From Amphiura filiformis (Eukaryota), in the NCBI RefSeq assembly GCF_039555335.1, contig NC_092646.1, forward strand, positions 57,946,946-58,010,945: DNA of 64,000 bases. The letters are read 5' to 3'. The notes below the pieces were generated by a model. The model did no database searches. It was given only the letters and a program-made list of their open reading frames with translations, and was not told the DNA's origin. The position numbers were made by a program, and so were the translations under genes. Shown one piece after another: positions 1-45,694 of the stretch. Position 1 is the first letter of the stretch; every line of letters starts with the position of its first letter.

Positions 1-3000
1 TAATAATTGTGACCATCCACATCGAAATCGTATTGAGTCATTAACCTCTAATTGTGACCATCCACATCGAAATCGTATTGAGTCATTAACCTCTAATTGT
101 GACCATCCACATCGAAATCGTATTGAGTCATTAACCTCTAATTGTGACCATCCACATCGAAATCATATTGAGTCATTAACCTCTAATTGTGACCATCCAC
201 ATCGAAATCGTATTGAGTCATTAACCTCTAATTGTGACCATCCACATCGAAATCGTATTGAGTCATTAACCTCTAATTGTGACCATCCACATCGAAATCG
301 TATTGAGTCATTAACCTCTAATTGTGACCATCCACATCGAAATCGTATTGAGTCATTAACCTCTAATTGTGACCATCCACATCGAAATCATATTGAGTCA
401 TTAACCTCTAATTGTGACCATCCACATCGAAATCATATTGAGTCATTAACCTCTAATTGTGACCATCCACATCGAAATCGTATTGAGTCATTAACCTCTA
501 ATTGTGACCATCCACATCGAAATCGTATTGAGTCATTAACCTCTAATTGTGACCATCCACATCGAAATCGTATTGAGTCATTAACCTCTAATTGTGACCA
601 TCCACATCGAAATCGTATTGAGTCATTAACCTCTAATTGTGACCATCCACATCGAAATCGTATTGAGTCATTAACCTCTAATTGTGACCATCCACATCGA
701 AATCGTATTGAGTCATTAACCTCTAATTGTGACCATCCACATCGAAATCGTATTGAGTCATTAACCTCTAATTGTGACCATCCACATCGAAATCGTATTG
801 AGTCATTAACCTCTAATTGTGACCATCCACATCGAAATCGTATTGAGTCATTAACCTCTAATTGTGACCATCCACATCGAAATCGTATTGAGTCATTAAC
901 CTCTAATTGTGACCATCCACATCGAAAAATAGTATTCAGTCATTAACCTCTAATTGTGACCATCCACATCGAAATCGTATTGAGTCATTAACCTCTAATT
1001 GTGACCATCCACATCGAAATCGTATTGAGTCATTAACCTCTAATTGTGACCATCCACATCGAAATCGTATTGAGTCATTAACCTCTAATTGTGACCATCC
1101 ACATCGAAATCGTATTGAGTCATTAACCTCTAATTGTGACCATCCACATCGAAATCGTATTGAGTCATTAACCTCTAATTGTGACCATCCACATCGAAAT
1201 CGTATTGAGTCATTAACCTCTAATTGTGACCATCCACATCGAAATCGTATTGAGTCATTAACCTCTAATTGTGACCATCCACATCGAAATCGTATTGAGT
1301 CATTAACCTCTAATTGTGACCATCCACATCGAAATCGTATTGAGTCATTAACCTCTAATTGTGACCATCCACATCGAAATCATATTGAGTCATTAACCTC
1401 TAATTGTGACCATCCACATCGAATTCGTATTGAGTCATTAACCTCTAATTGTGACCATCCACATCGAAATCGTATTGAGTCATTAACCTCTAATTGTGAC
1501 CATCCACATCGAAATCGTATTGAGTCATTAACCTCTAATTGTGACCATCCACATCGAAATCGTATTGAGTCATTAACCTCTAATTGTGACCATCCACATC
1601 GAAATCGTATTGAGTCATTAACCTCTAATTGTGACCATCCACATCGAAATCGTATTGAGTCATTAACCTCTAATTGTGACCATCCACATCGAAATCGTAT
1701 TGAGTCATTAACCTCTAATTGTGACCATCCACATCGAAATCGTATTGAGTCATTAACCTCTAATTGTGACCATCCACATCGAAATCGTATTGAGTCATTA
1801 ACCTCTAATTGTGACCATCCACATCGAAATCGTATTGAGTCATTAACCTCTAATGACCATCCACATCGAAATCGTATTGAGTCATTAACCTCTAATTGTG
1901 ACCATCCACATCGAAATCATATTGAGTCATTAACCTCTAATTGTGACCATCCACATCGAAATCGTATTAAGTCATTAACCTCTAATTGTGACCATCCACA
2001 TCGAAATCGTATTGAGTCATTAACCTCTAATTGTGACCATCCACATCGAAATCGTATTGAGTCATTAACCTCTAATTGTGACCATCCACATCGAAATCGT
2101 ATTGAGTCATTAACCTCTAATTGTGACCATCCACATCGAAATCGTATTGAGTCATTAACCTCTAATTGTGACCATCCACATCGAAATCGTATTGAGTCAT
2201 TAACCTCTAATTGTGACCATCCACATCGAAATCGTATTGAGTCATTAACCTCTAATTGTGACCATCCACATCGAAATCGTATTGAGTCATTAACCTCTAA
2301 TTGTGACCATCCATCATCGAAATCGTATTGACCATCCACAGAAATCGTATTGAGTTAACCTCTAATTGTGACCATCCACATCGAAATCGTATTGAGTCAT
2401 TAACCTCTAATTGTGACCATCCACATCGAAATCGTATTGAGTCATTAACCTCTAATTGTGACCATCCACATCGAAATCGTATTGAGTCATTAACCTCTAA
2501 TTGTGACCATCCACATCGAAATCGTATTGAGTCATTAACCTCTAATTGTGACCATCCACATCGAAATCGTATTGAGTCATTAACCTCTAATTGTGACCAT
2601 CCACATCGAAATCGTATTGAGTCATTAACCTCTAATTGTGACCATCCACATCGAAATCGTATTGAGTCATTAACCTCTAATTGTGACCATCCACATCGAA
2701 ATCGTATTGAGTCATTAACCTCTAATTGTGACCATCCACATCGAAATCGTATTGAGTCATTAACCTCTAATTGTGACCATCCACATCGAAATCGTATTGA
2801 GTCATTAACCTCTAATTGTGACCATCCACATCGAAATCGTATTGAGTCATTAACCTCTAATTGTGACCATCCACATCGAAATCGTATTGAGTCATTAACC
2901 TCTAATTGTGACCATCCACATCGAAATCGTATTGAGTCATTAACCTCTAATTGTGACCATCCACATCGAAATCGTATTGAGTCATAACCTCTAATTAACC

Positions 3001-6000
3001 TCTAATTGTGACCATCCACATCAAAATCGTATTGAGTCATTAACCTCTAATTGTGACCATCCACATCGAAATCGTATTGAGTCATCGAAATCATATTGAG
3101 TCATTAACCTCTAATTGTGACCATCCACATCGAAATCGTATTGAGTCATTAACCTCTAATTGTGACCATCCACATCGAAATCGTATTGAGTCATTAACCT
3201 CTAATTGTGACCATCCACATCGAAATCGTATTGAGTCATTAACCTCTAATTGTGACCATCCACATCGAAATCGTATTGAGTCATTAACCTCTAATTGTGA
3301 CCATCCACATCGAAATCGTATTGAGTCATTAACCCACATCGAAATTGTATTGAGTCATTAACCTCTAATTGTGACCATCCACATCGAAATCGTATTGAGT
3401 CATTAACCTCTAATTGTGACCATCCACATCGAAATCGTATTGAGTCATTAACCTCTAATTGTGACCATCCACATCGAAATCATATTGAGTCATTAACCTC
3501 TAATTGTGACCATCCACATCGAAATCGTATTGAGTCATTAACCTCTAATTGTGACCATCCACATCGAAATCATATTGAGTCATTAACCTCTAATTGTGAC
3601 CATCCACATCGAAATCGTATTGAGTCATTAAACTCTAATTGTGACCATCCACATCGAAATCATATTGAGTCATTAACCTCTAATTGTGACCATCCACATC
3701 GAAATCGTATTGAGTCATTAACCTCTAATTGTGACCATCCACATCGAAATCGTATTGAGTCATTAACCTCTAATTGTGACCATCCACATCGAAATCGTAT
3801 TGAGTCATTAACCTCTAATTGTGACCATCCACATCGAAATCATATTGAGTCATTAACCTCTAATTGTGACCATCCACATCGAAATCGTATTGAGTCATTA
3901 ACCTCTAATTGTGACCATCCACATCGAAATCGTATTGAGTCATTAACCTCTAATTGTGACCATCCACATCGAAATCGTATTGAGTCATTAACCTCTAATT
4001 GTGACCATCCACATCGAAATCGTATTGAGTCATTAACCTCTAATTGTGACCATCCACATCGAAATCGTATTGAGTCATTAACCTCTAATTGTGACCATCC
4101 ACATCGAAATCGTATTGAGTCATTAACCTCTAATTGTGACCATCCACATCGAAATCGTATTGAGTCATTAACCCCTAATTGTGACCATCCACATCGAAAT
4201 CGTATTGAGTCATTAACCTCTAATTGTGACCATCCACATCGAAATCGTATTGAGTCATTAACCTCTAATTGTGACCATCCACATCGAAATCGTATTGAGT
4301 CATTAACCTCTAATTGTGACCATCCACATCGAAATCGTATTGAGTCATTAACCTCTAATTGTGACCATCCACATCGAAATCGTATTGAGTCATTAACCTC
4401 TAATTGTGACCATCCACATCGAAATCATATTGAGTCATTAACCTCTAATTGTGACCATCCACATCGAAATCGTATTGAGTCATTAACCTCTAATTGTGAT
4501 TGTGATCCATCCACATCGAAATCGTATTGAGTCATTAACCTCTAATTGTGACCATCCACATCGAAATCGTATTGAGTCATTAACCTCTAATTGTGACCAT
4601 CCACATCGAAATCGTATTGAGTCATTAACCTCTAATTGTGACCATCCACATCGAAATCATATTGAGTCATTAACCTCTAATTGTGACCATCCACATCGAA
4701 ATCGTATTGAGTCATTAACCTCTAATTGTGACCATCCACATCGAAATCGTATTGAGTCATTAACCTCTAATTGTGACCATCCACATCGAAATCGTATTGA
4801 GTCATTAACCTCTAATTGTGACCATCCACATCGAAATCGTATTGAGTCATTAACCTCTAATTGTGACCATCCACATCGAAATCGTATTGAGTCATTAACC
4901 TCTAATTGTGACCATCCACATCGAAATCGTATTGAGTCATTAACCTCTAATTGTGACCATCCACATCGAAATCGTATTGAGTCATTAACCTCTAATTGTG
5001 ACCATCCACATCGAAATCGTATTGAGTCATTAACCTCTAATTGTGACCATCCACATCGAAATCGTATTGAGTCATTAACCTCTAATTGTGACCATCCACA
5101 TCGAAATCGTATTGAGTCATTAACCTCTAATTGTGACCATCCACATCGAAATCGTATTGAGTCATTAACCTCTAATTGTGACCATCCACATCAAAATCGT
5201 ATTGAGTCATTAACCTCTAATTGTGACCATCCACATCGAAATCGTATTGAGTCATTAACCTCTAATTGTGACCATCCACATCGAAATCGTATTGAGTCAT
5301 TAACCTCTAATTGTGACCATCCACATCGAAATCGTATTGAGTCATTAACCTCTAATTGTGACCATCCACATCGAAATCGTATTGAGTCATTAACCTCTAA
5401 TTGTGACCATCCACATCGAAATCGTATTGAGTCATTAACCTCTAATTGTGACCATCCACATCGAAATCGTATTGAGTCATTAACCTCTAATTGTGACCAT
5501 CCACATCAAAATCGTATTGAGTCATTAACCTCTAATTGTGACCATCCACATCGAAATCGTATTGAGTCATTAACCTCTAATTGTGACCATCCACATCGAA
5601 ATCGTATTGAGTCATTAACCTCTAATTGTGACCATCCACATCGAAATCGTATTGAGTCATTAACCTCTAATTGTGACCATCCACATCGAAATCGTATTGA
5701 GTCATTAACCTCTAATTGTGACCATCCACATCGAAATCATATTGAGTCATTAACCTCTAATTGTGACCATCCACATCGAAATCGTATTGAGTCATTAACC
5801 TCTAATTGTGACCATCCACATCGAAATCGTATTGAGTCATTAACCTCTAATTGTGACCATCCACATCGAAATCGTATTGAGTCATTAACCTCTAATTGTG
5901 ACCATCCACATCAAAATCGTATTGAGTCATTAACCTCTAATTGTGACCATCCACATCGAAATCGTATTGAGTCATTAACCTCTAATTGTGACCATCCACA

Positions 6001-7810
6001 TCGAAATCATATTGAGTCATTAACCTCTAATTGTGACCATCCACATCGAAATCATATTGAGTCATTAACCTCTAATTGTGACCATCCACATCGAAATCGT
6101 ATTGAGTCATTAACCTCTAATTGTGACCATCCACATCGAAATCATATTGAGTCATTAACCTCTAATTGTGACCATCCACATCGAAATCATATTGAGTCAT
6201 TAACCTCTAATTGTGACCATCCACATCGAAATCATATTGAGTCATTAACCTCTAATTGTGACCATCCACATCGAAATCATATTGAGTCATTAACCTCTAA
6301 TTGTGACCATCCACATCGAAATCGTATTGAGTCATTAACCTCTAATTGTGACCATCCACATCGAAATCATATTGAGTCATTAACCTCTAATTGTGACCAT
6401 CCACATCGAAATCATATTGAGTCATTAACCTCTAATTGTGACCATCCACATCGAAATCGTATTGAGTCATTAACCTCTAATTGTGACCATCCACATCAAA
6501 ATCGTATTGAGTCATTAACCTCTAATTGTGACCATCCACATCGAAATCATATTGAGTCATTAACCTCTAATTGTGACCATCCACATCGAAATCGTATTGA
6601 GTCATTAACCTCTAATTGTGACCATCCACATCGAAATCATATTGAGTCATTAACCTCTAATTGTGACCATCCACATCGAAATCGTATTGAGTCATTAACC
6701 TCTAATTGTGACCATCCACATCGAAATCGTATTGAGTCATTAACCTCTAATTGTGACCATCCACATCGAAATCATATTGAGTCATTAACCTCTAATTGTG
6801 ACCATCCACATCGAAATCATATTGAGTCATTAACCTCTAATTGTGACCATCCACATCGAAATCATATTGAGTCATTAACCTCTAATTGTGACCATCCACA
6901 TCTAAATCATATTGAGTCATTAACCTCTAATTGTGACCATCCACATCGAAATCGTATTGAGTCATTAACCTCTAATTGTGACCATCCACATCGAAATCGT
7001 ATTGAGTCATTAACCTCTAATTGTGACCATCCACATCGAAATCGTATTGAGTCATTAACCTCTAATTGTGACCATCCACATCGAAATCGTATTGAGTCAT
7101 TAACCTCTAATTGTGACCATCCACATCGAAATCATATTGAGTCATTAACCTCTAATTGTGACCATCCACATCGAAATCATATTGAGTCATTAACCTCTAA
7201 TTGTGACCATCCACATCGAAATCGTATTGAGTCATTAACCTCTAATTGTGACCATCCACATCGAAATCGTATTGAGTCATTAACCTCTAATTGTGACCAT
7301 CCACATCGAAATCGTATTGAGTCATTAACCTCTAATTGTGACCATCCACATCGAAATCGTATTGAGTCATTAACCTCTAATTGTGACCATCCACATCGAA
7401 ATCGTATTGAGTCATTAACCTCTAATTGTGACCATCCACATCGAAATCATATTGAGTCATTAACCTCTAATTGTGACCATCCACATCGAAATCGTATTGA
7501 GTCATTAACCTCTAATTGTGACCATCCACATCCACATCGAATCGTATTGAGTCATTAACCTCTAATTGTGACCATCCACATCGAAATCGTATTGAGTCAT
7601 TAACCTCTAATTGTGACCATCCACATCGAAATCGTATTGAGTCATTAACCTCTAATTGTGACCATCCACATCAAAATCATATTGAGTCATTAACCTCTAA
7701 TTGTGACCATCCACATCAAAATCATATTGAGTCATTAACCTCTAATTGTGACCATCCACATCGAAATCGTATTGAGTCATTAACCTCTAATTGTGACCAT
7801 CCACATCGAA
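1..7810. repeat. 45-bp tandem satellite, consensus TGTGACCATCCACATCGAAATCGTATTGAGTCATTAACCTCTAAT, about 173 copies, extends beyond window start
   Basis: A perfect 45-nt periodicity is visible by eye. The same 15-aa period (HPHRNRIESLTSNCD) appears in every stop-free frame of the ORF track. Variants are few (CGT>CAT, CGA>CAA) and junction scars are small. Confidence 0.97.
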
Positions 7811-8304
7811 ACGCTCGTAAAGTCGGCCCCTGGTCAATTATGTTTTCTTGCGTATTTAGAAAATATATATCATAAGCTTTACAATGATATATCATTTAAC
7901 TTCAAACAATATCCAGAAGCGGGGTTATGGCTTGTTAAACTTTGCTACTTCAGTAAAAAGGTACATTATTTTGGTGCTACAATACATGTATATCTCTTTT
8001 TCTATATACATTGCTGGTATTAAATATCAAATGGTCATATTTGGTCACTTTAAATCATCCCCAAGTCAAACGAGGTTCAGGAATGTCCTCTCATTGTTAA
8101 TTGTTGGTTAACTCACCATTTGAACAGGATTTAGCCAAAGCAAACAAAGACTAAAGCTATTTACTATAAGTATAAGCTTATTATCCTCTTCAACAATAGG
8201 ATTAAAGATTGGTATTTGACTGGACTGAAATGAGACACTTGTAGGACAATTATTAGGTACATTATGAATACAAGCTTTATGCACATTTTGGACTGTAACT
8301 CGAA

Positions 8305-8365
8305 ATACAATTTGCCGACTTTACGAGTGGTTTGAGATGGATGGTCACAATTATCCTCCACTCCA
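8305..8365 (-). repeat. Inverted copy of the satellite-end/terminal sequence (GCCGACTTTACGAG...GATGGTCACAATTATCC), pairing with 7773-7830
   Basis: The reverse complement of 8305-8365 is about 85% identical to the last satellite monomer plus CGCTCGTAAAGTCGGC at 7773-7826. Confidence 0.6.
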
Positions 8366-8392
8366 CTGACATGTTTTGTTTTTTCATTTCAG

Positions 8393-8529
8393 GAAACATT
8401 CAACAAGTTTGAGTCACCACAAGACATAGTGAAATTTTCCGAGGGTGATATATTGTCTAAAGTACATATACACAATCCAGCGTTTGACTACGTGCCTCCA
8501 GAATTAGTTACTCTCTATATATCGAATAT
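8393..8529 (+). CDS. EIF2B4: eIF2B delta-like (translation initiation factor 2B subunit), penultimate coding exon
   Basis: Acceptor ttttgttttttcatttcag|GAAACA. Translation is [45 protein letters not shown], matching the conserved eIF2B family C-terminal motif NP.FDY(V)PPEL.TL.I.N. Donor AT|gtaagt, phase 2. Confidence 0.6.
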
Positions 8530-8604
8530 GTAAGTACAGTGTAATTGGGAGCAACTTTAAAATTCTATATGTCCCGGTAATATTTTTCACGTGTAGTTTT
8601 TGTG

Positions 8605-8725
8605 GTGAAGGTTTCAAATGGGGTCACCCATACAGGTAAACCCCATTTGCAATTCACACTCCCTGTGTGGGAGATTAAGGTCGTGTCTTTCATTGGGGTG
8701 TATGGATTTCAACTGGAATAGCTGA
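8605..8725. mobile_element. MITE family A (hairpin, core GGAAGACATGACCTTAATCTCCCACACAGGGAGTGTGAATTTCAAATGGGG), partial copy
   Basis: Matches the right half of the family-A consensus. Confidence 0.6.
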
Positions 8726-9479: not shown

Positions 9480-9552
9480 TGGTGGTAATGCACCTTCATA
9501 TGTATACAGGTTACTAAGTGAGATGTATCACCCAGACGACACAGAATTATAG
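9480..9552 (+). CDS. EIF2B4: eIF2B delta-like terminal coding exon ([24 protein letters not shown])
   Basis: Acceptor ttgtattacag|T is phase-compatible with the previous exon. The GGNAPSY.YRL.SE.YHPDD C-terminus is characteristic of eIF2B delta. Stop TAG at 9550-9552. Confidence 0.6.
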
Positions 9553-10739: not shown

Positions 10740-11500
10740 TCATGTCACATATGTGACACAATCTAGTCCATGGGGTCCAAAGGTGGCAAATTTTAAATTG
10801 AGATAAAGGCAAAAATATGGAGTAAAAAACAATAAAATACATAACAAAATACACATCACAAAGCTTCATAACTTTAGAACCAAGTATGCTAGACCTTTGG
10901 TGTTTTCAGTATATGATAGCCTATTGTTTGTATAAGGTAATGTATGGTAACTCAATTGTCAAAAATGCCTTCTTTGGCCCCCATGGAGCAGATCGTGGCA
11001 CATATTTTGACTTTAAAAAGATGTCAGCGATAAAATCTCATTCCTCAAGCACCTATGTGACCTGGTCGGTCTGGTCCATGAGGGCCAAAGGTGGCAAATT
11101 TGGGTCGATCCTTCATGTAATTATTTTGTGTAATCTAATCCTAACCCTAATCCTAACCCTAATCATAATCATAACCCTAATCCTAACCCTAATCCTAACC
11201 CTAAACTAACCCTATAACCTTAACCCTAACCCTAATTTCAGTCGTGTAAAATTACATGAAGGAATAACCCAAATTTGAAATTTAGATAAAGACAAAAATA
11301 TGGATTTAAAAAAAAAAAACATTTAATACATTAAAAAATAGACATCACAAAACTTCAGATCTATTCATAAAAGGATATACGGTATGATAGACCTTTGGTG
11401 TTTTCAGGATATGATAGCTTATTGTTTGTATAAGGTAATAATTATAGTATCTCAGTTTTCAAAAATGCCTCCTTTGGCCTCCATGAACATAATGGGAGTT
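10740..11500. repeat. Local ~480-bp duplication; its two halves flank an interstitial telomere-like array
   Basis: 10760-10990 and 11240-11470 are about 80% identical (GACCTTTGGTGTTTTCAG...TGTTTGTATAAGGTAAT; AAAAATGCCTYCTTTGGCC). Confidence 0.6.
11104..11236 (-). repeat. Interstitial telomeric repeat (CCCTAA/TTAGGG)n, degenerate, about 20 units
   Basis: CTAACCCTAATCCTAACCCTAA... It is flanked by the inverted pair CCTTCATGTAATT / AATTACATGAAGG, so it sits in a hairpin loop. Confidence 0.85.
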
Positions 11501-11989: not shown

Positions 11990-12910
11990 ATTGTCTCTTT
12001 GTGAGCTTGAAGTGGCTCCTGATTCGTATGAAATCCCTGTGAATCAGGAGCCACATGCAGGAGGTACAAAGAGGCCCCTGGTTTAGTCTCCACACAGCAG
12101 CCAGTTTAGTTCCGCTTCCTCCACACAGTCTGCCAATGATATCTAACTAGTTCTTTTTGATTGGCCAACACTTTTCCCATGACATCATCCAGCACAACTT
12201 CAAACAAGGCTGCTTGAACAATTATAACAGACGTAGGCTTACCTTTATAACTTCATGGCTACATGTATCATCCAAATTTGCCCAGGACCAGTTTGTCATA
12301 AATACCCCTTGTGCGTACAACAACGATAAACGAAATACCGGTGGGTTTTCGATGCTGCTCGCACAGCTGATTATCTGGCAGTGAGTTCAACCCAGACTCA
12401 AGTTCACGGATCACTCAATTACTGGTACTGCATTATAGACTTAATCAGACCTGCCAACTGTCCCTCATTTTGAGGGACTGTCCCTCATTTGGGGTTTACC
12501 AAAGTGAAAATGAGGGACAGTCCTGTTTTCTGAAAATTTCAGCGATGACAAATTTAAATGTAAGAACAGCAGAAAATGATGGAAATATCTCTTTAAAATT
12601 TACTATAGCATTCTCTTTAGTCTATTGTGATAAATTAAGACCTGCAAAACCTCCGAATTCTGAAAGTAATGCACACCTAGTATTTATCAAGTCTTTGAAT
12701 TTGTTGGTACCTGGTTTGTGTACATGGACAAGGTTTTGGTCTCAATGTCCCTCATTCTAACTTTGGTAGGTTGGCAGGTCTGGACTTTACATAGTCACCC
12801 TCTAGCCAATCAGAAACAACTACGTTATTTTTGTCATTGGCAGACTATTTGTGAGGAGGGAGTGGAACCAAACTGGCTGCCGAGGAGACTACTCTTGGTC
12901 GAGAAGTCCT
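11990..12910. mobile_element. Inverted-repeat element hosting MITE-C; arms 12040-12140 and 12815-12885
   Basis: CCACACAGCAGCCAGTTTAGTTCC...CAGTCTGCCAATGA pairs with TCATTGGCAGACTA...GGAACCAAACTGGCTGCCGAGGAG as a reverse complement. Confidence 0.5.
12446..12784. mobile_element. MITE family C (TIR CCAGACCTGCCAAC), copy 1
   Basis: TIRs CAGACCTGCCAACTGTCCCTCATTT ... GGTAGGTTGGCAGGTCTGG. It is about 85% identical to 59223-59554. Confidence 0.8.
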
Positions 12911-16794: not shown

Positions 16795-16965
16795 GTCTAT
16801 TTCAGTTGAAATCCATACACCCTATATGACCTTGAACTTCCACACACGGAGTGTGAATTTCAAATGGGGATACCTGAATGGGTGAATCCATTTGAAATCT
16901 ACACCCCTATGTGGGAGATTAAGGTTAATTCTTCCATGGGGGTGTGGATTTCAAGTGGAATAGCA
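16795..16965. mobile_element. MITE family A, full copy
   Basis: GAAATCCATACACCC...CCACACACGGAGTGTGAATTTCAAATGGGGATACCTGAATGGGTGAATCCATTTGAAATCTACACCCC...GGGGGTGTGGATTTCAAGTGGAATAGC. The halves are mutual reverse complements. Confidence 0.8.
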
Positions 16966-17039
16966 CAATTCAGATTTTAACAACAACCAAGCAAGATCAT
17001 GGAAACTTGGTTATTCTCTGATCACAGTCATCTCAAAAC

Positions 17040-17260: not shown

Positions 17261-18812
17261 AAGAGACACAATTCATTTCTAGAGCATCTTTCCAGAACTC
17301 ATTTTATGCATAAGTCGAAAATAGTTTAGTACTTGGATAACTTGACAAACAATAATTCAATATAAAGATAATCTGATTGGATAGACCTTCACAGTCATAC
17401 AATGATATTATTATTCAGTTCCACATTCAACTGAAAAAACAAAATTTATGCAAAATTACATGCATTTGCACATAATGCACATAATTATCAATTTCAAAAT
17501 AAATTTTCTAATTTTTGTCCTTAATTCAAATCAAAAAACATTCACTACTGCAGATAAACAGGACAATATTTTCAAAACAAAAACCAAAATCTATAAGTTA
17601 CTACAATTTTCTTCTATTTTCATGAATATAATATAAATGGACATAAATACTCAATAGTAAAAAAGGAGAACAAAAAGTTTGATTAGTACAACCAAACATG
17701 TAGAAAACATAATCAGGGAGTGTCTGCTCATTGGTCGATTTTGGGTGCATCCTTGGTGTAAGGACATCATGAGTTAAACTAGTGTAAAGACTCCATTGTG
17801 GAATGAAGCAGCTTACAGAATAAAGCTGTATAATCATTCAATGATTTCCATGCTAGGCTAACACCAAGGATGCACCTGATTTTGGACTTTATTCCCATTG
17901 TTTTTATCACAATGATTTACTTTTGAACACTCTATTTCATTCAACCTGCCAGACCTCTGCACCTTCTGGTGTTCAATCAGTTTAAATAGCTATTGCAATA
18001 GTCTTGTTTTATATCTGGTCTTGTTTGAGTTCACAGAACTTAATAAAGCATTATTTTTAGAATTTAGCATAAGTGACGGGCATTAATTTTTCCTCTTCCA
18101 GGAACAAACTGCCTGTCCAAAATGACGGGTGGAAAGGTGGCTAGCTAATATAACACCCTGTGAAAGAGCTATGGGATTTGGTTTTGTTTATAGGACTTCC
18201 GATGGCCCCTGCAGGGTTAGAAATCCAACGCAAATCCGAGAATCCATTTGCGCAAATATTCTCCTAAACACAGAGAATTCAAGTAGATTCTCACAAACCT
18301 TTCTTGTTTTATATACTTAGTGAATGGAGGAGAATCTGAAGATTCTCGCAAGTTATTTTTAAGAATCTAAATGGATTTTCGCAGCTCTCTGTGGATTTCT
18401 GACCCTGCCCTGGTGCATGTTTTTGTTGAGACTGACCTTAAATTTTAATATCTAGAGCATTAAAGTTAACTGGCAGTGTAATTGTTTGGATTAATACCAC
18501 TTATATCCCCATTTGATTTACAAGTTAACTTAGTTTCAGCTACCACTGTAAATACAAATATCAAAATAGAATAAGTATGAAGATATATAACATTTGTTCC
18601 AACTAGACGAGTTATTCTGAATTTTTTTTTTTTCAAATATTTTTCAATTTAAGAAAAGGTTAATTGCTTATTTTATTGTGAATTGAACTTTAAATCGCAC
18701 ATACATTGAACCCAATCTGGAAGCATTGTCTTTTTTTCCCGAACAGTACAAAAATAACAATTACTTTTCTACATTTGAGCCACGCGAGTAGCACTTCATT
18801 AAAATCAGCGAT

Positions 18813-18988
18813 TTCAGTTGAAATCCATACACCCCCTATGGAAGACAAGACCTTAATCTTCCACACAAGGAGTGTGAATTTGAAATGGGGGTTACCTGAA
18901 CTGGCAATTCCATTTTAAAGCTACACCCCCTGTGTGGGTGATTAAGGTCATGTCTTCCATACAGGATGTCTGGATTTCAACTGGAATA
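18813..18988. mobile_element. MITE family A, full copy
   Basis: Same consensus and the same hairpin. Confidence 0.8.
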
Positions 18989-19267
18989 GCCCAGGAAGTG
19001 CATTTCATAACTGTTGACAGCCCATCTCATTTCAGTACTTCATACAATGAGGTCCGAGGTAATGCGAGGTGAAAGTTGTTCCGTACATTTGTATTTGACA
19101 TAACTGGCAAAAGCATAGTTTGTGCTAGCCTGCCTTTGGGGATGGACCCCAAGAGTTTGTGATGGACTCCCTTTTGAACTTGATCAACTAAGGGGTTTAA
19201 ATTTAGCCTGTATGCTCACAGAAGTTTTTCCAGATTCAAATCTGTCCGAGTGCTCATTATATTGAGT

Positions 19268-21682: not shown

Positions 21683-21842
21683 TGGACTATTCCATGACCT
21701 TAAATCTACCATACAGGGAGTGTGAACTTCAAATGGGGTTACCTGAATGGGTGACTCCATTTGAAATTTACACCTGTAAGTGGGAAATAGATTACGGTCA
21801 TGTCTTCCATAGGGAGTGTATGGATTTCAACTGAAATACCCC
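21683..21842. mobile_element. MITE family A, copy lacking the extreme left terminus
   Basis: CCATACAGGGAGTGTGAACTTCAAATGGGGTTACCTGAATGGGTGACTCCATTTGAAATTTACACC...GGGAGTGTATGGATTTCAACTGAAATACC. Confidence 0.75.
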
Positions 21843-22439
21843 ATTTCAATTGATTTGTAATCTATCATGGAAGCGACCTCTATCCATGCCAGGGAAGCTG
21901 ATATTTTTGAAATAACATATTTTATTATAACTTATACAAAATTGGCACTTTTGTTTAGAAACAAAATGTGCGAAGTTTCCCAAATCAAACAAAAGCATTT
22001 ACTGGGCCTACCTAGTAATCTCTCTGTAATAAGGTAAAAATAAATATTGTGTTCCTCTCCGCTGTATTTCACAGGTGGGTCAGTTGGCAACAAAACATTT
22101 TCTTACACTTTTCTTGCTTTTAATTCCAAACCAAAATGACAAAAATAGCTTCATTTTGGGTGCATTGTTCAACAGTCTCCAAAAAAAGACCCCACCCAAA
22201 GTGAAAATTTGGGTGCTTTTCAGGCTCTCCTTTTTTTGTTGCTGTCATGTTGAGAGAGAGCAACACAATATTCTATATTTTTGGCCTTTCTGACAAGACA
22301 TTTGGTCAATTAATACTGCAGATTTACAAAATTCCGGCTCATTCCAATCTTATATCGGCTAATGTAGCTGAGCACTCCGCTGATTACTTGTTTGTTGTCC
22401 GCTGATTACAAGAAGGATGCAAGTGCAATATTGGTCTAT

Positions 22440-22626
22440 TCCGGTTGAAATCCATATACCCCCCTATGGAAGACATATCCTTAATCTCCCATACACAGGG
22501 TGTAGATTTCAATTGGGAGTCACCCATTTTGGTAATCCCATTTTGAAATTCACACTCACTGTGTTGAAGATTAAGGCCATGCCTTCCATAGGGGTGATGG
22601 TATGGATTTCAACTGTAACAGCCCAT
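22440..22626. mobile_element. MITE family A, full copy
   Basis: Same consensus. Confidence 0.8.
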
Positions 22627-23169
22627 TATTTCCAAAATCCAATTCCTGCTATTGTGGCAACTCAACATACAAGACTTATGTAAATTGTATCACATCACTG
22701 CAGGGCATATTTCAGCTGGTATTTACATAGCATTAAAACACTACCATATTTTATACAACATGCTATGCAATTTTGAGGTACAAGATATATCCTGAAATTG
22801 CTATGCAATATTTTTCTAAAATATGCACCGCTTGCATCTGCCCTCAGGTGAACACAAAACTAGAAATGACGGGATCCAAAATGAATTCCACAACTGTCCA
22901 ATAGTTACTTGAAGCCCCATCTTTCAAAATTTTGCCTTTTTTGCACTGCACCAGAGGACAGAGATTTGTTTGCATTGTAAGTTGAGGTACCCTATCACTA
23001 AAGAGCTCATTTAGATCCTTTAGTAGAGATTAGACTCTTAAGTCTTAACCTCTGTGGGTATCACCCAAAATAGCAGGACTTGGCAACTTATAAATTTATA
23101 CTAAAAAAAAAATTAAGGGCTAGAATTTCGGCACAAAGTGCAAGAATGGTTTTTGATTCTTGTAGATTG

Positions 23170-23358
23170 GGACATTCCATTTGAAATTTATACACCCCCT
23201 CTGGACGACATAACCTTTATCTTACACACATGGGAGTGCAAATTTCAAATGGGGTTACCTAAATGGGCGACTCCATTTGAAATCTATGCCACCCCCTGTG
23301 TGGGAGATTTAGATCACATCTTCCATAGGGGGTGTATGGATTTCAACTGGAATAGCCT
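23170..23358. mobile_element. MITE family A, full copy
   Basis: Same consensus; sits about 450 bp downstream of the SERBP1-like stop codon. Confidence 0.8.
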
Positions 23359-23860
23359 GCGTAGACTGAAAATTTACGAGAATCAAAGTCACACATATCC
23401 TTCCACAATCATCTCTAAAGATAATATTTGATTTGCCAAGTTGCATCAACATTCTAACCCTCATGTTGCACATACAGCATTCTCGTAATCTCCAGAAAAT
23501 CTCATTTGAATAGACACCGTACAAAATTAAGCCTCCGTCGACATTCAAACATAATCCTCTCTTTACACATCGCAGAACTGTTTTTGTTACTAATGCTTCT
23601 TGTTTTCACAAAGTTTGCAGGTAGAATAATTTACAGGAACACCACTGTGGGCATCATCGGCTCAAAAAACATATTTCTGTTGCCATCTCCGGCTGGCTTC
23701 TTGGGCCAGATAGTCTTGCAAGACCAAGATGTTGTCTTTTTTTTTTTTTTTTTAATAGTTCATTTTTTTGTTTAAAGCTATTGAGTTAGCATTGTCCCTT
23801 TACTAGGGAAGGTGGTTTTCACATGAACCACGGGACCTACTTGGGAGGCCTCTTTCATAT

Positions 23861-24337
23861 TTAATTGGCGCCCAAAGACGGGAACTCGTCTTCGTTGTCG
23901 ACCATAGGAGCAGGGCCCTCGTCTCTTCTTCTGCCGCCGCCGCGCCGCCGCGACCACCACCACGCCCTCTGCCTCCTCCACGACCGCCTCCAAATCCACG
24001 CCCGCCGCCAAATCCACGCCCACTTCCAAATCCACCCCCCTCGCGACGATCACCACCGCGATCACCACCACGGTCACCACCGCGATCACGGTCACCGCCA
24101 CGATCGCGATCACCGCCACGATCGCGATCACCGCCACGACCACCCCCACGATCTCGGTCACGATCACCACGATCGCTACCGCCACCGGGTCCGCCACGAC
24201 CTCCTCGTCCACCGCCACGGCGTCCTCCACGACCACCTCTGCCGCCGCCGCCCACGATTCTGATCCGGGTAGAAGTTAATGTTAATTTCCAAAGTCTGTT
24301 TGGTGTGTCGGTCCTTGGCCTGGTGTTCAATAGCATG
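23861..24337 (-). CDS. SERBP1: SERBP1/HABP4 (PAI-RBP1)-like terminal coding exon: conserved flanks in one frame, RGG/GGDRDR/GFGGGRG domain in another (two compensating 1-bp frameshifts)
   Basis: Acceptor tctttttccctttaccaacag|CAT. Frame A reads HAIEHQAKDRHTKQTLEININFYPDQNRG (compare SERBP1 ...[20 protein letters not shown]). About 24252 the frame shifts into the RGG domain (GGRGGRGGRRGGGRGG...GGFGSGRGFGGGRGFGGGRGGGRGRGGGRGG). About 23942 it returns to frame A for RRRDEGPAPMVDNEDEFPSLGAN* (compare SERBP1 C-terminus APDVDDPEAFPALA*). Confidence 0.65.
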
Positions 24338-25031
24338 CTGTTGGTAAAGGGAAAAAGAACATTCAATGACTTCTACAACCAATACGGCAGGCGTGTAATT
24401 TTTTGAATGGAAACATCACAATTTTTGAAAGTTTTTAAAGAAAATGGATATGAATATGTTTAAAGGGCAGGTTTATAGCAAAAACAAGTTTATCTCTATT
24501 CAAAGAGAATAATTATTGGCCATGCGTTTTGAGTTGGGCCGGTAATGCGTTACATGTTTTCGCGAGATGAAAATTGCATGTTTTTGCGTTTAGATGTGAA
24601 TATCTTTCACAAATGATACCCAACATATATAAAAGTATACATTTTCTGGCTGCAAATACCAAATATTTTAGGGAAAAAATGTAAAATTTGACAAATTAAA
24701 AAAAAAAGTTAGCTTTACCCCACATATTTAAAAGTTCCATATTTGAATTCCTCTCAGTCAGAGCTTTAAATAGATATAACATCATAGGGTTCAATAAAAT
24801 TAAAATGATTTTGCGCCAGCTTCTTTCAAGGCATATTTTCCCATTGACTTCAATGTAACCCGAATGGAAAATAAAATATGCAAAATTGCTTCTCAAAGCA
24901 AATTAAATTACCTGGAATATGATTGTATGGTGTTATAGTATGCAGTTTAAAGTGAATTGTAAAAATGTGAAAAAAGAAATGGACCTCTTGCATCATATAA
25001 CCCCTGGGGGTCACTTTTATTAAATTTGCTC

Positions 25032-25066: not shown

Positions 25067-26739
25067 CGCACATTATGCTAATTATATGCAAATTATTCAA
25101 ATGTTAATAACTTTTTACAACTTTTTTAAGGTTTACTGTATTGGTCTCATCACAAGCTTTAATTTGACACCAAATTTAACTACATAGGCTACATATTAAC
25201 TGAGAAAATTAACAAGATGAACCCTAAAATGCCGCGCGCATGTAACATCTCCACCTATTTACTGGCCCAACTCAAAACGCATGGCCTATTACATTACAAG
25301 TTGACACTTGTTGCAATTTTTGTGTGCGTATTTCTCCTGAAAAAGGAGAAATTGTGTGGGTAAAGTTCAGCCTCGACGTGTTCTTCCCCCTTTGAAGCGT
25401 CGTGTTCTCCCCCGCTTGACTGATGACGTAGGTAAATGAAGCGGGCACTTTATCGTGCTCTCATCATACAATCACAATCACTTTGACAAGTTTGACATTA
25501 GCAACAATGAGTTGTACTATCACTTACCATAACAATGCTGCATAAAAATATGCACGCTATTGTTCTCTTTCGGGCTATTGTTCTCTTTCGGGAACAAAGC
25601 CCACACAGTAATTGTTACTATGCGTTTGCTTTGTAATATTTCATCCAACTGAAACTATAGCATTGCAATATACAGGGAAATCAGATGCATGAGTTTATGG
25701 ACTAACACGGTTTATATGCTAGCGTCAGATGAAATTCTAAGCTCAAATTATGTATTTATTTTTTAGGCCTAATATTTCTCATGATATTGATATACATATG
25801 AATTGTAATATCACAATTGTCTAATATATAAAAAAGAAGCGGCTGGTTTTATCCATATGTTTAAAAACCATGAAATTTGTAATACTTAAATTTGGAATTT
25901 TTTGCTGTGAACAGCAACAGCATAGGTTCTGTCCATTGCGAGCGTTTATAGTCCCTTTTCTCAACGCGGGCACATCTCATTTCATGACGTCACCGATTTT
26001 CTAGGCCAAATCTGTCTCGTTCGAACGAACTCACCGCTTAAGTTAGTTTTTGAGAAATATTAATTTTAAACGTCTTATTTTCTCAAAAAAGGAGTCATTT
26101 TCATTGTCCTCATAATATTAGCTTGCCAATGATATGTTGTTTTCACTATAGACCTGCCCTTTAAGGACACTTCAGATAGACCTGGGGATGAACAACTCAT
26201 GCCAAACTCAAATGTTGTGCAAAATTGTTATACACAACTTTCTTGTAAAGAAAGCAATTGATCTGTTGCACAAAAGTTCATATTCTCAAAATAGCATTAC
26301 TATTTGTGACCTGCGACCACGTAATCCGCCACAAGTCGCCGCGACTTTACACTCATTTCGTTGAGTTGGTAGTTTCAAGATATTCGGTCTAAGATGATGT
26401 TATTTGTTTGCTGCGCACCTGTACAAGCCAGTAGTATTATCCTTAGTGAATGGCCCATTGTGTTCCCATTCACAAAGGATGTCAAACAAAGAACATCAAC
26501 TTAGACCGAATATCTTGAAACTACCAACTCAACGAAATGAGTAAAGTAAGGCGACTACATTTACGGCGGATTTTTGTGGTAGCAGGTCATACATGTTGTG
26601 GGAAATCCCCCTATTGGATTGGCACCAACAAGTTTTTAACTATTAATGGTGCCTTAAAATGAAATAAAGTTGCCACGGTTGGTGAATAGTGCTAATCAAA
26701 CTCTGTATCATAAATGCTCAACCTGGCTGTGGGTCATAC

Positions 26740-26980
26740 CTTTTCAGCATCAGCAGCCATTTGTTCTTTCTTCTTGAGCACTTTAGTTTCCGTCCATTGT
26801 GACTGGTCCTCGCCTTCACCAGCGCGCCGCGTCTTGAATTCTTTACGGTAACGTTCCTTGGCCATCATCTCTTTGTACTCGTCTAGGGTCATCTCCGGTG
26901 CTTCGTCTTCCTTCTCGACGCCTTCTTCGCCTTCACCGGGTTCTCCATCTTCCTTGATGACCTCGTCAGTTGCATTGTCT
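26740..26980 (-). CDS. SERBP1: SERBP1/HABP4-like internal exon (hyaluronan/mRNA-binding family core)
   Basis: DNATDEVIKEDGEPGEGEEGVEKEDEAPEMTLDEYKEMMAKERYRKEFKTRRAGEGEDQSQWTETKVLKKKEQMAADAEK matches SERBP1 [41 protein letters not shown]. Donor AAG|gtatga. Acceptor tgtcacaacag|A. Confidence 0.75.
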
Positions 26981-29394
26981 CTGTTGTGACATAACAGAGT
27001 AAGAATATTAGGATACAATACGATCAGGAACCTTGCCATACATGACCAGTTTCATAGGTCCCCATGCCTGGAAAAATGTGGAATCCTGGGGGGTTGACAA
27101 GTGGACCCCCCCCCCCCACCTCAGCCATGTAACTTGGCAACAAATTGCTTTGACAGAGATCAGGAATGATTGCACTTTCCTAAAAAAACAAAAATGCATG
27201 TGAAATAGGGCAAAAAGTACCAAAAACAGGCTGAAAGTAAATAAAGTTTTGAGCACTGAAGCCTGTAAGGTATAAACATAGGTAGACTGACATACTGAGT
27301 TGACAACTGAGAAACTTTTTTGTTAAGACTGCATTGTTGTCCAAATTAACCTATTATTTGAACACATATTTTCAGAACAGGAGATCGCGATCCTGTCCTG
27401 TCACCACGGCTCGGTAGGACACGAGCAGCAGTAGGATTTGCGCGACGGCACGTGACCAAAATCATATTCCAAGTCATACTTTGGGTTTGCATTGTTAGTC
27501 TGGTCATTTTGGTGTCAACAAACAAGAACAGTTCGAGTACTCTTTGTGTGTCAAGGTCACTCAATCCCACTATTGAGTTGTAGTAATCTCATCCCAAATG
27601 CCAGAATTCAGTATCGTCCACTGAACTGTGATAACTCAAAAATTTACCATTATCTAAAAGCTATGAGTTTGTGTACACAATGTATACAAAGGTCATTCTT
27701 TGAGTGTGTAAGCCTATTGGGGTTAATGAACTTGTCTTTTAGGACCCTAGTGTTGTAGTTTGTTACAATGTTCAGTAGTTCAGTACACTTCGGTTTATAA
27801 GTAGGACCTGCTAAAAATAACACCATTTGACCAGTACCAAGACCTATCCTATGCCATACATTTGTGAAAGTGGAAATTTTGGCATGCACATTTTATTTTG
27901 TGCAATTTATTGATTTTAAACCATTTCACTTATCTTTAAATTTGCAATTTTGAACTTTTGTACATGCACCTAGACACACAAAATAAATGGCCATAAGTTC
28001 ATAGGTTTTTTTCCTGCCTAATGATGAAGCCCCATATAATGTGTTATTGGTGCCAAAATTGGAAATTCTTGGTCTCCATTTTTACCTTTCTCTCATTCCA
28101 AAACCCTACAACCTTATAAAAAAGTGATACTACTAGTATGTAAGGAAGCGAAAACTTGCAACTTTTATAACAAGTAACACACTTTAAGTGCACAAAAATT
28201 AACACAAGAAAGTACCAAAGTTAAAGTTTCTAATTTGCCTACACAACATTGCGTCGCTGGGCAGGAAAAACCTGTCATTGGCCCCTGAACATGCTTAAAT
28301 CAAAACCTCCATGTAACTGGTTGGCAGTTTTGTTTTAAACATGTTCAGGTGCCACAAACACATAGGTTTTTCTTGCCCAATGACATTTTCACATTGCATC
28401 AAGACTTACTTGGATTCAGTTTTGTTGTCGGGCGTCTTGTTCGGTTTTCTCAGGATTCCATTGGGTAGCTTCTAACTCCTCGCTATTATTGGATGTGTCT
28501 AGGTCCCTGAAACAAATCATAACCAATATGTACAGTTTAGCATGTGTAGCTCAGTTGCATTACCCTTTTTTGGTCGAAGAAGCGATGCGCCTAGGCCTGG
28601 GGAGATTCCGCTCTTTGCAATCGCAATATCCACACACAATTTTTGGTTGAGTCAGAGTCAATCTGCACACCAAAGAAATTGAACTTTTCCGTTAATTTCC
28701 AAACTGGTCGATTCCGCAACATCAGCCTTTGCAGAAAGTAAATTTATGTATCAATTTGGACTATTGTCAGGAAAGAGCAGTCACACACAATGCCCAGGTT
28801 TGTGTTAGAATCAAAGTTGAATCTTGAAAAATCCAATGCTGTATTGGGTTTGAATCATGGGCTTCCACATGGCCTATACTTTGAACACAAATCTTAAATT
28901 TACACACCCAGTTTTTTGAATTTACACACCCAAACCTTCAAATCCTGCCTAAGACCCTCGATGCCCTGATGCCCTTAACACTTTCTGCGTGCAAGTTAAG
29001 AATGCAATAATGCAATCTCACACAAGCCCATGGCGGCCATCTTGGATACTTATGTGTAAGGTTAATTTCAAAACTGTTGATGAGAAATAATCATTTGAAA
29101 TGTTTATGAAGCAATTCTAGTATGTTTTTCCTTAACCCGTTACATCGAAAACGGCTGCTATCGTCCTACGAGCAACCCGCAATACTGCGCTGCAATGTGA
29201 TTTCACACAAAATCAAAATATTGCAACTTGGCGTGTTCATTTTAGTTTTATGCCAAATCGTAACCAGAACAAAATGAGTATATCACTTCAACAGAAACTC
29301 ATTCAAGAATTAGTAAAATAGAACGAAAGTAAGTCTGAAATAATCACTCACTAAAATCTAACTTAAAATGTTATTAGTTTAAAACACTCGTTGA

Positions 29395-29962
29395 AATGGG
29401 CTATTCTATTGGAAATCCATACACCCCAGTTAGCCCCGTAGAAGATGTGTGACATCCTTAATCTCACATACAAGGGGTGAATGTATCAAATGGCGTCACC
29501 AATTAAGGGGGTACTACACCCCTCGATAAATTAGTGTCTATTTTTTGCATTTTTCTCAAAAACTAATAACACAGTGGTAACAAAATTTATGTATATATTA
29601 TAGGGGCAAGGAATCCAGTTACTACACTGGAATTTCAGTGACTCAAGACAAGTGGTTTGTTATTTATGATAAGAAATAAGGTACCGCTAGGATGTACCTC
29701 GTTTCCTATCATATATACTGAACCGCTTGTCTTGAGTCACTGACATTTCAGTGTAGTAATTGGATTCCTTGCCCCAATAATATACAAAACTTTTGTTACC
29801 AGTGTGTTATTATTTTTTGAGAAAAATGCAAAATTAGTCACACATTTACCACAGGGTGTAGTACCCCCGTAAGGTAATCCCATTAGAAATCCACACTGTG
29901 TGAAAGGACAGGTCTCATATAGATGGTATATGGATCTCAACTGGAATGGCCCAATAAATGTA
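29395..29962. mobile_element. MITE family A copy split by a nested MITE family B insertion (B occupies 29503-29872)
   Basis: The A left half ends ...TCACCAATTAA|GGGGGTACTACACCCC. The A right half resumes after ...GGTGTAGTACCCCC|GTAAGGTAATCCCATTAGAAATCCACAC. Confidence 0.8.
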
Positions 29963-30771: not shown

Positions 30772-32343
30772 CTGAAAACAGTAAAAACACATTAGACGAC
30801 TGTAGCAGTCTGTCACTGTGGTTGCACTGATACGACTGTGGACGTCCCACGGAGGATGGGAAGCCACAGTACATACCAATTCGGTAAAAGTGTAGCTGAC
30901 TTGACCGACGCAAATTGTGAGGTACAACTTGCAAGTTTGGGTATGTAAAAATTGGACTGCTGGGAGGGAGTCTGTCAAACAAACCAGGGTCAGAATTTCG
31001 GCGAGAATCTGAGAATCGATTCTGGCAAAGATGGTCGCAAACAGATTTGCATTCATGAATCAAAGTTGATTCTCGCAAACTTTTGTAGTTTACACAGAAG
31101 TTGATTTGCAAGAATCAAAATGATTCCCGCAAAATTATTCTGCAAGAATCAAGATTGACAGATTCCCGCACTGTGAAACAAAATTCTGACCCTGCAAATC
31201 TTACCAATCTATTAAATTAAAATCATTGTGAATTGCAAGAGTCCTTTTTTTTTTTTAACTGCGAGATGTGAGCACATGCTGGGAACTTTTTTTAAATTTT
31301 GTAGAGATTGGCACTTTTAATCGCATACATACATTAAACTAATATCAGTCTAACAAATAGCAGCATTAATAACATTAATTTTAATACCAAAAATATCAAA
31401 TGTGCCTGGAACAATAATTTGTATACAATGTATGCATTTCCATCATGTGGACATGTGCTACACATCATTTTCTAAAACATCCGAGAGCCCATGTTTATGA
31501 TCATTTATATCGGCATCACTTAATGTATCATTTCCAAATGCTGTGCTCCTAATGACCTAAATAGAAACCCATATTCAGCCTAGTCAGCCAGCCAGGTCAT
31601 CAGAAGGCAGACCTCAAGTTTGTCTATGCCATATGTAGGAGCTATATGATTGACAAGAAAGGTCATACAGTGAATGATTACTTGATTAGATGATTATATG
31701 GGTGGCTCTCTGCATCATTCATTTGAGATGCAGATGCATCACTTATATTGCTCTTCCAGTTCCAGATTGTCTTTGCAGGACTTCTACAGCATGAAACAAG
31801 ATTTCAAAAATGAATCTAGAACTGGAGGACAAGTATACTGTGTTCAACATTATAAAATAATCTTAGGCAGGCCAAAGTCAAAAAAAGGGTTTTCTCTCTA
31901 ACCCACGCCCAACTATGAAAGCCATCCTATGCGCTAGGCCTTTTTTAGTACAGACTTTTTAAATTATAAAATAAAATTCCTGTGTACACATAGCACTTGA
32001 CTTGTTTTTCTTTTTTAAGAGAAAAAACAGCAGTTTTTTTGCAAAATGTTTGAAACCTTTTGTTTTTGACCTCGGGAGTAAACTAGTTACCAATCTCCCA
32101 ATGCAATGGAGAGTTATTACAGTACATGCACAGGACACTAGGGTAATGCATGCCTACTTGTACATGAACTTGAGCCTGTAATTTTTAATTGCCCTGAGGG
32201 CACATGCCTACCTCTAGTATTACCAGATGCTTGTTATTCAGCACATGTACACAATCACAAATAAATCCCAATATTTTTTTCTCATCAGTTACATTTCAAG
32301 AGGGTGGGGAGTGATCAGGAAAGCGCAATTAAAATCCACTTGC

Positions 32344-32854
32344 CTCTTATCGCTTCCACTGTGTCGGTCAAACTCTCTCTTGCCACGGAAATCTCGTCCT
32401 CCTCGGATCCCGCCTTGTCCCCTACCACGCCCTCTGCCTCTTCTGGCGCCACGCTCTCCACCAAATTCGCCGCCACTACCAAATCCGCCGCCGCCGCTAC
32501 CAAATGTACCGCCGCTACCAAATCCGCCGCCGCTGCCAAATCCGCCACCGCTACCAAATCCACCACTTCTTGGCGGCCTATCTCCTTGATCTCGGAATGA
32601 CGGCCTGTCACCGCCCCTATCGCTCCTAAATTCGTTTGACGGTGCCTGGTTTTCTCTGTTCTCATGGAAGAAACCACCGTCTTGGTTTCGCCTCTCACCG
32701 CGGTTGTCCCTACCGCCGTCACGGTCACGAGGACCGTCTCGGTCTCGGTTTTGTCTACCTTCTGATCGGCGGTTGTCTGAGCGGCCACCTCTGTTGCCAC
32801 CACGGCCACCTCTGTTGCCCTGCCTGTTGCCCTCGGGCCTATCTGATTTGATTT
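32344..32854 (-). CDS. SERBP1: SERBP1/HABP4-like exon 2: RGG/GFGSGG-rich region ending ...RDFRGKREFDRHSGSDK
   Basis: Acceptor ttttttattttcag|AA. The sequence ...GGFGSGGGFGSGG...RGRGRGRGQGGIRGGRDFRGKREFDRHSGSDK matches the SERBP1 RGKREFDRHSGSD motif. The donor is the non-canonical-but-valid AG|GCAAGT. Confidence 0.75.
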
Positions 32855-36134: not shown

Positions 36135-36492
36135 TTCACTAAAAGGGGGTACTACACCCCTGCCCAATTTTGTGCCTATTTTTGCATTTTGCTCAAAAAG
36201 TATAGCACATTGGTGACAAGTAACATGTATATTATAGGGGCAAGTACTACAACTATTGCACTGAAAATTTTATTTCAGCACAGACAACAGTTGTGGAGTT
36301 ACAGTCAAAAATGAGGGAAAACCAATATTTGATCAGTAAATCAATAACTACTTGCCTTGAGTTGCTGAATTTTCAGTGCAGTAGTTGTAGTCCTTGCCCC
36401 TATAATATACATATCTTACTTGTCCCCAATGTGCTATAATGTTTGAGAAACATGCAAAAATAGGCACAAAATTGGCCAGGGTGTAGTAACTA
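36135..36492. mobile_element. MITE family B (~365-bp hairpin, termini GGGGGTACTACACCCCTG...CAGGGGTGTAGTACCCCC), copy
   Basis: The whole element is a near-perfect long inverted repeat around GCACAGACAACAGTTGTGGAGTTACAGTC. It matches 29503-29872, 37596-37964, 38657-39022 and 54273-54647. Confidence 0.85.
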
Positions 36493-45620: not shown

Positions 45621-45694
45621 TAACAACGACTTCGATCGGCCAAGTTTTAATCCGCTGATCTATTGACGCATGAAAAGAAAAGCTATCAATTGTT

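Follow-up and report, generated by a model that had tools for sequence, protein, structure and literature searches.

The DNA described here is a 64,000-nucleotide (nt) stretch of the genome of Amphiura filiformis (contig NC_092646.1, positions 57,946,946 to 58,010,945 of the forward strand), referred to as the window, all positions below being counted from its first letter. It opens within a tandem array of 45-bp monomers, which runs without interruption and in register into one arm of a 566-bp inverted-repeat unit (7788-8353), and this unit in turn stands just upstream of the penultimate coding exon of a gene resembling that for eIF2B beta. We consider it moderately likely that the unit is a non-autonomous element with inverted-repeat ends, located at the eIF2B-beta exon, and that its left end has been amplified in place into the 45-bp array. 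The anatomy of the junction, the different ages of array and inverted repeat and one outside relative of the arm, found without the array and beside a transposase remnant, all point in this direction.

The 45-bp array and its junction with an inverted-repeat unit

The array occupies positions 4-7787 and, as delineated with Tandem Repeats Finder (TRF) and a census of the monomers, consists of about 169 units of the consensus TAATTGTGACCATCCACATCGAAATCGTATTGAGTCATTAACCTC, all on the forward strand. TRF itself reports one 45-bp array spanning 4-7811 with 51.7 + 121.4 copies (about 173) and 96-98% matches. As the array reaches past the start of the window, its length of at least 7.8 kb and its copy number of at least 170 are lower bounds. 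In the census, 161 of the 169 units are exactly 45 bp long and 121 match the consensus perfectly, mean divergence amounts to only 0.59%, CpG transitions account for 38 of the 43 substitutions, and no higher-order periodicity was found among the 169 units. A TCGT-to-TCAT variant is clustered within the 2 kb adjoining the junction of array and arm. Moreover, the observed/expected ratio of CpG is 1.25 in the array versus 0.57 in the remainder of the window. From the low divergence, the excess of CpG transitions and the undecayed CpG it follows that the array is either very young or strongly and continuously homogenised, in a genome otherwise losing CpG. The long, homogeneous head-to-tail arrangement is that of a satellite; judged by the size of its monomer, the array could equally be named a large minisatellite.

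Within the monomer, TTAA is followed by CCTC, each 45-bp unit being bounded by TTAA and starting with CCTCTAATTGT. Of the monomer's 21-nt second half, 170 copies are present, always on the forward strand and always within the array, and no dispersed monomers were detected in the other 56 kb of the window. Likewise, monomer patterns gave 0 matches in viral and prokaryote collections, and neither monomer nor arm motifs were found in a literal-sequence search of 8 million papers. Long open reading frames (ORFs) of up to 1023 aa are present inside the array in two stop-free frames. These were rejected as coding sequence and are treated as an artefact of periodicity, since 45 bp correspond to 15 codons and since the encoded repeats, NCDHPHRNRIESLTS and EVNDSIRFRCGWSQL, have no match among 5.8 billion protein clusters, no protein sharing even three 5-mers with them. 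At the very beginning of the window, positions 1-3 read TAA in front of TAATTGTG and are thereby off the repeat phase, CTC being expected as the end of the preceding unit; this points either to a variant unit or to a sequence record starting inside the array.

The final unit of the array begins at 7788 and, after its base 24, leaves the monomer sequence and enters CGCTCGTAAAGTCGGC at 7812-7827. These 40 nt constitute the left arm (7788-7827, forward strand) of an inverted repeat, with the outer 24 nt, TAATTGTGACCATCCACATCGAAA, being the start of the monomer and the inner 16 nt being absent from it. The array is in direct orientation, contiguous and in register with this arm, whose inner 16 nt thus complete the last copy. 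In a repeat search, the right arm (8314-8353, reverse strand), likewise 40 nt long, was found to be complementary at 35 of 40 positions (88%) at a distance of 486 nt, and the pair was confirmed by blastn of the unit versus the whole window (E 3.2e-8). Over the inner 16 nt, the right arm agrees with the left arm at 15 positions versus 3 at the corresponding positions of the monomer, and because of this it has to be regarded as an inverted copy of the junction and not of the monomer. In the outer 24 nt, the monomer is matched at all 24 positions by the left arm and at 20 by the right arm, and four of the five mismatches between the arms are located here. The inner motif CTCGTAAAGTCGGC was found only at 7814-7827 on the forward and 8314-8327 on the reverse strand with two mismatches allowed, compared to an average of 0.06 occurrences in shuffled sequences. 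With 5 of 40 positions differing (12.5%), the arms are considerably more diverged than the array units are among each other (about 0.6%), which speaks for a greater age of the inverted repeat.

Between the arms, the interior of the unit (7828-8313) is AT-rich (31.5% GC) and non-coding, and six-frame translation of 7812-8392 gave stop codons in all frames. Folding of the unit (7788-8353) as single-stranded DNA results in paired arms (z = -5.2), and scans against Rfam and for tRNA genes did not return any match. The unit is consequently short (566 bp), bounded by inverted repeats (40-nt arms, 35/40) and non-coding, as is expected of a transposable element of the miniature inverted-repeat type (MITE), and on the sequence it may be called MITE-like; its status as a MITE or as a member of a mobile family, and its superfamily, are unproven. 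A stretch of 18-19 nt within the unit, ACATTTTGGACTGTAACTC (8283-8301), weakly resembles a family of repeats of about 360 bp present elsewhere in the window (E 0.03-0.1).

In an earlier reading of the same DNA, from here on called the original prediction, the monomer had been taken to be homologous to the end of an inverted repeat. This is borne out, the first 24 nt of the monomer being the outer part of the left arm. The last monomer was also rightly described as running directly into a motif of which an inverted copy follows. The positions require correction, as the motif lies at 7812-7827 instead of 7811-7826 and the inverted copy of the junction at 8314-8353 instead of 8305-8365, so that the unit measures 566 bp (7788-8353) and not about 575 bp (7790-8365) and ends 37 nt, rather than 28 bp, before the acceptor AG at 8391-8392.

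A relative of the arm beside a transposase remnant

Relatives of the arm were searched for with the pattern GTGACCATCCA N8-12 CTYRTAAAGTC, which demands both outer and inner parts of the arm. The pattern had 0 matches in IMG/VR, 0 matches in 596 Gb of prokaryote genomes and one match in a metagenome collection, contig JAAUXV010321654.1 of 2118 bp (hereafter L001). This contig holds a contiguous homolog of the whole arm, TTTGTGACCATCCAGCATTAAACTGCTCATAAAGTCAGCAATTTGT. In comparison with the right arm, 23 of 38 positions not forced by the pattern are identical, a value equalled by 11 of 200,000 random 39-mers of the same kind of sequence, and the differences inside the forced core are CpG-to-CpA changes. 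Beyond the 40 nt, the right arm and L001 have GCAAWTTGT in common. On the interior side of the terminus, L001 encodes on its reverse strand (560-2118) a frame-shifted, decayed piggyBac-type transposase (PF13843, E 6e-14) with best relatives at 36-41% identity, too distant for their termini to be of use here, and the arm homolog is situated about 400 nt beyond the 3' side of this remnant. L001 is evidently eukaryotic DNA, albeit filed under metagenomes. As this is a single contig, the proximity of arm homolog and transposase may reflect chance nesting.

The 45-bp array is not present in L001, and the interior of the contig shows no similarity to the interior of the unit, only the terminus being conserved; such a pattern would be expected for a non-autonomous element compared with a transposase-bearing relative. 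Relative to this one outgroup terminus, the inverted-repeat sequence would stand on the ancestral side and the array on the derived side. The comparison with L001 is good evidence that the 40-nt sequence represents a transposon terminus older than the array and that the outer and inner parts of the arm would ancestrally belong together. As both parts lie side by side in L001 without the array, the direction from inverted repeat to satellite is favoured, the satellite probably being the derived state and the inverted repeat the ancestral one. In this respect, too, the original prediction is supported, which had one terminus amplified into an array of more than 7.8 kb, in line with the direct orientation and register described above. 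A comparison of L001 with the sequence outward of the right arm, including the splice acceptor, gave GTTTCCTGAA as the best ungapped piece. This similarity was treated as due to chance, being reached by 11 of 500 shuffles and residing in a stretch that includes conserved coding sequence.

The piggyBac superfamily is characterised by a TTAA target site and a PF13843 transposase. In line with this, the sole external homolog of the arm adjoins a decayed PF13843 transposase, L001 carries TTAA-CCTCTAC outward of its arm homolog, and TTAA-CCTC is thus found in the contig as well as in the monomer, where the left-side TTAA sits 4 nt outside the arm and inside each monomer. On the other hand, TTAA is not duplicated on both sides of the unit, the right arm being flanked by TCCTCC, and no piggyBac-like coding sequence was detected in the window. 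Since the TTAA test fails at the right arm, assignment of the unit to piggyBac is kept as a lead and not as a classification. Further hints at a target site are limited to TA within the ends of the arms and to CCTC, which is found in direct orientation on either outer flank with an offset of 1 nt.

The eIF2B-beta gene and other features of the window

Downstream of the right arm, 39 nt of intron remain (8354-8392, forward strand), in which a branch-site-like CTGAC (8366-8370) and a polypyrimidine tract precede the acceptor AG (8391-8392). The arm stops 37 nt short of this AG and 39 nt short of the exon, leaving both the CTGAC and the tract intact. The penultimate coding exon (8393-8529, forward strand) encodes ETFNKF...LYISN followed by a split Ile codon, with the donor GTAAGT starting at 8530, and the last coding exon (9480-9552, forward strand) encodes 23 residues and the stop codon TAG at 9550-9552, with AATAAA near 9762. 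When joined, the 69 residues match residues 284-349 of the 351 residues of human eIF2B beta in the PDB (E 8e-30). This is the only named eIF2B subunit matched there at E <= 0.01, and no delta chain reaches this threshold. Likewise, the named cluster relatives, from rat and Centruroides, are eIF2B beta, and an HMMER search with the exon among 1.8 billion representatives, combined with cluster names, returned eIF2B beta (scorpion 66%, tuna 63%); identity of the exon to eIF2B beta of other animals is 58-68%. As structural and named relatives are of the beta type, the gene is, by homology, EIF2B2-like and not EIF2B4-like, in contrast to the eIF2B-delta gene of the original prediction, and only its last two coding exons are in the window.

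By tblastn with two orthologous fragments reaching about 35-45 residues further upstream, no additional eIF2B exon was found before 8393 or elsewhere in the window. This includes 7812-8392, where upstream exons, had they been present, would have placed the array 5' of the gene, as the original prediction itself had pointed out. Because an upstream exon is missing from the entire window, the array is likely intronic, provided that further exons exist beyond the window and that the array has been assembled correctly. In an intact gene, the first 283 codons or so would be found beyond the array, and the intron would exceed 8.4 kb versus 950 bp for the next one.

The window is rich in other short self-complementary repeats, belonging to two families with six to seven copies each. 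Repeats of about 360 bp are located at 29486-29887, 36143-36488, 37603-37962, 38658-39018, 39146-39326 and 54276-54645; they are about 75-82% identical to their own reverse complement and 87-93% to each other, and probably represent a palindromic MITE family. Repeats of about 185 bp are found at 8604-8722, 16797-16969, 18808-18993, 21693-21848, 22430-22627, 23166-23357 and 61034-61213, one copy thus residing within the last eIF2B-beta intron. From these families it is clear that the source genome hosts MITE-like elements. Besides, inverted repeats of 1 kb (42044-43082 and 44594-45622) are 93% identical and about 1.5 kb apart, and may have arisen by inverted duplication or else belong to a large element whose inverted repeats are long. 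Two copies of a dispersed repeat, each about 340 bp in length (12446-12784 and 59223-59555), show 90% identity in direct orientation over a distance of 47 kb. Tandem repeats other than the 45-bp array comprise four copies of a 118-bp repeat at 47805-48281 (81% matches), followed about 1.7 kb downstream by a second, diverged block (49476-50001), and an interstitial telomere-like (CTAACC)n tract at 11135-11235 (about 17 copies, 78% matches). Other coding sequences include exons of a SERBP1/HABP4-like gene on the reverse strand (26737-27051, 32292-32903 and 40291-40800) among them an RGG-rich one, with matches to the HABP4_PAI-RBP1 domain (E 1e-6) and, weakly, to IHABP4_N. Another RGG-rich ORF is present at 23806-24372. 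An ORF on the forward strand (53119-53622) ends in a C2H2 zinc finger (PF00096, E 5e-6) and probably represents a zinc-finger gene's first large exon; the assembly collection has no entry for it.

Origin of the array and comparison with known systems

The observations are best explained by a 566-bp non-autonomous DNA element with inverted-repeat ends that would have inserted a short way upstream of the eIF2B-beta gene's penultimate coding exon. Later, a short local duplication at its left end may have comprised the outermost 24 nt of the repeat together with 21 nt of either original flank or rearranged subterminal sequence. This duplication may have come about by slippage, or else when a break or stalled fork at the inverted repeat was repaired via microhomology; such stalling or breakage might have been promoted by the repeat itself. 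Subsequent expansion and homogenisation of the duplicated sequence in place could be due to replication slippage or to unequal exchange between sister chromatids, resulting in at least 170 head-to-tail copies.

Several findings weigh against this scenario. The unit is present as a single copy in the 64 kb, with no second copy detected by blastn or by a motif search with two mismatches, and it lacks a convincing target-site duplication, the left flank being replaced by the array and the right flank reading TCCTCC. By calculation, chance alone would produce the arm pattern about once in 600 Gb, and L001 is a single contig, which is why the L001 match was judged on the unforced positions and on its context. 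As the window does not reach the far end of the array, a larger element might enclose the array. Finally, the monomer's 21-nt second half scored no better than shuffled sequences when compared with the left inner flank, the inner arm, an internal L001 repeat or the L001 spacer.

Regarding these 21 nt, there are two hints. A weak one is the resemblance of AAATCGTATT--GAGT in the monomer to AAATTGTATTTCGAGT just inside the right arm, which 59 of 2000 shuffles reach (p about 0.03). The other concerns the stretch across the monomer boundary, TTAACCTCTAATTGT, which matches TTAACCTCTACTTGT in L001, 85 nt outward of the arm homolog, at 14 of 15 positions, a score reached by 0 of 500 shuffles. If both are real, the whole monomer would be element-derived, each unit representing TTAA joined to a condensed terminus. 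Should both be spurious, the original left flank would have supplied the 21 nt, and the seed duplication would have spanned the insertion junction.

Among the competing explanations, the one faring best, albeit in our view unlikely, sees in the array an integral domain of expanded subterminal repeats, part of a larger foldback-type element with its true left terminus beyond the window, or the edge of a satellite family present at many loci. The window does start inside the array with the far end beyond view, tandem repeats inside inverted repeats are known from Tetris and Galileo (PMC4079207), and the match of TTAACCTCTAATTGT outside the arm homolog of L001 raises the possibility that the 40-nt arm is subterminal. 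However, only one arm is expanded, the right arm being a single copy without any trace of the monomer, monomers are absent from the 56 kb of flanking sequence, and the peptides encoded by the satellite are unmatched among the 5.8 billion protein clusters.

We give little credence to an origin without any transposon, in which fold-back repair or template switching beside a pre-existing satellite would have generated the inverted repeat as a local inverted duplication of the array edge. The single copy in the window, the missing target-site duplication and the lack of coding capacity would agree with such an event, and pairing of the arms in the DNA fold is expected of any inverted duplication. 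Nevertheless, L001 carries the 40-nt sequence including the part foreign to the monomer, without the satellite and beside a transposase remnant, and it also has GCAAWTTGT beyond the 40 nt in common with the right arm. Moreover, divergence of 12.5% between the arms compared to 0.6% within the array points to an inverted repeat predating the array.

Similarly improbable is an assembly artefact, i.e., a contig end or misjoin bringing array and gene together, or a truncated gene fragment, in which case the array would not be placed in an intron of a working gene. Positions 1-3 being off the repeat phase (TAA in place of CTC), scattered units bearing indels as is typical of long-read error or collapse, and the first 283 or so codons lying outside the window would be in line with this. 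Yet, the junction of array and arm is seamless, in register and mirrored by the right arm 486 nt off, which is not expected of a random misjoin, and both exons have an open frame, with canonical splice sites, a stop codon, a nearby AATAAA and 58-68% identity to animal eIF2B beta.

Very improbable, although suggested by the TTAA-bounded units starting with CCTCTAATTGT and by TTAA-CCTCTACTTGT outward of the arm homolog beside the piggyBac-type transposase of L001, is a chain of 'solo ends', each consisting of target site and terminus and formed by aberrant transposase activity (one-ended insertion or end capture) instead of slippage or unequal exchange; if true, a satellite would have been generated by way of a transposase within a housekeeping gene.

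Returning to the preferred reading of an element end amplified in place, the locus is of value because seed junction, unexpanded partner arm and a very young array survive together in gene-dense sequence, 37 nt from a splice acceptor, while the origin of a satellite is usually erased before the array is noticed. With the full genome, it could reveal at base resolution the route from a transposon end to a tandem array, and it could also show how a housekeeping gene puts up with more than 8 kb of inserted DNA in one intron when the adjacent one measures 950 bp. The general picture is unchanged by this, as transitions from transposon to satellite are well documented; a clean and young example is useful for studies on satellite origin.

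Satellites derived from transposons are catalogued in reviews (PMC6947457, PMC12628747), and two of their features, shared sequence and contiguity, are found here, with 24/24 positions shared with the left and 20/24 with the right arm and an array in register. Closest in kind is Tetris of Drosophila virilis, where the TIR-220 repeats have 37 bp in common with the outermost inverted repeat (about 80%) and form kb-size arrays for which unequal crossing-over has been proposed (Dias et al., 2014, PMC4079207). As in Tetris, the tandem repeat shares a short stretch with the outermost inverted repeat (here 24 bp, 100% with the left arm), and kb-size arrays are attached to a non-autonomous element. 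In contrast, the Tetris monomer has 220 bp versus 45 bp here, and its repeats lie inside both inverted repeats, in many copies and in beta-heterochromatin, whereas here one arm is affected at one euchromatic, probably intronic locus. MITE-derived or MITE-carried satellites are also represented by Xstir and miDNA4 in Xenopus and by the pearl/BIV160/HindIII satellites and DTC84 in bivalves (PMC12628747, PMC6947457, PMC5139131), a composite of element plus array being one of three structures described for Xstir (PMC12628747). These systems share with the present locus a short, inverted-repeat-bounded, non-autonomous element joined to an array with an element-related monomer, but their repeats come from or reside in the element interior, while here the monomer has the terminal 24 nt and the array is outside the arm. 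Tandem transposon dimers have been put forward as satellite seeds (McGurk and Barbash, 2018, PMC5932611), likewise implying a transposon-associated tandem duplication followed by expansion in copy number; there, whole elements are repeated (hobo, Bari1 and R1), whereas here it is a 45-bp fragment spanning an element end. As satellites originating from transposons, including from inverted-repeat sequence as in Tetris, have already been described, the locus is a further example, differing from the known cases in detail only, namely in its small unit, in the one expanded arm with the array outside and in the euchromatic, probably intronic setting.

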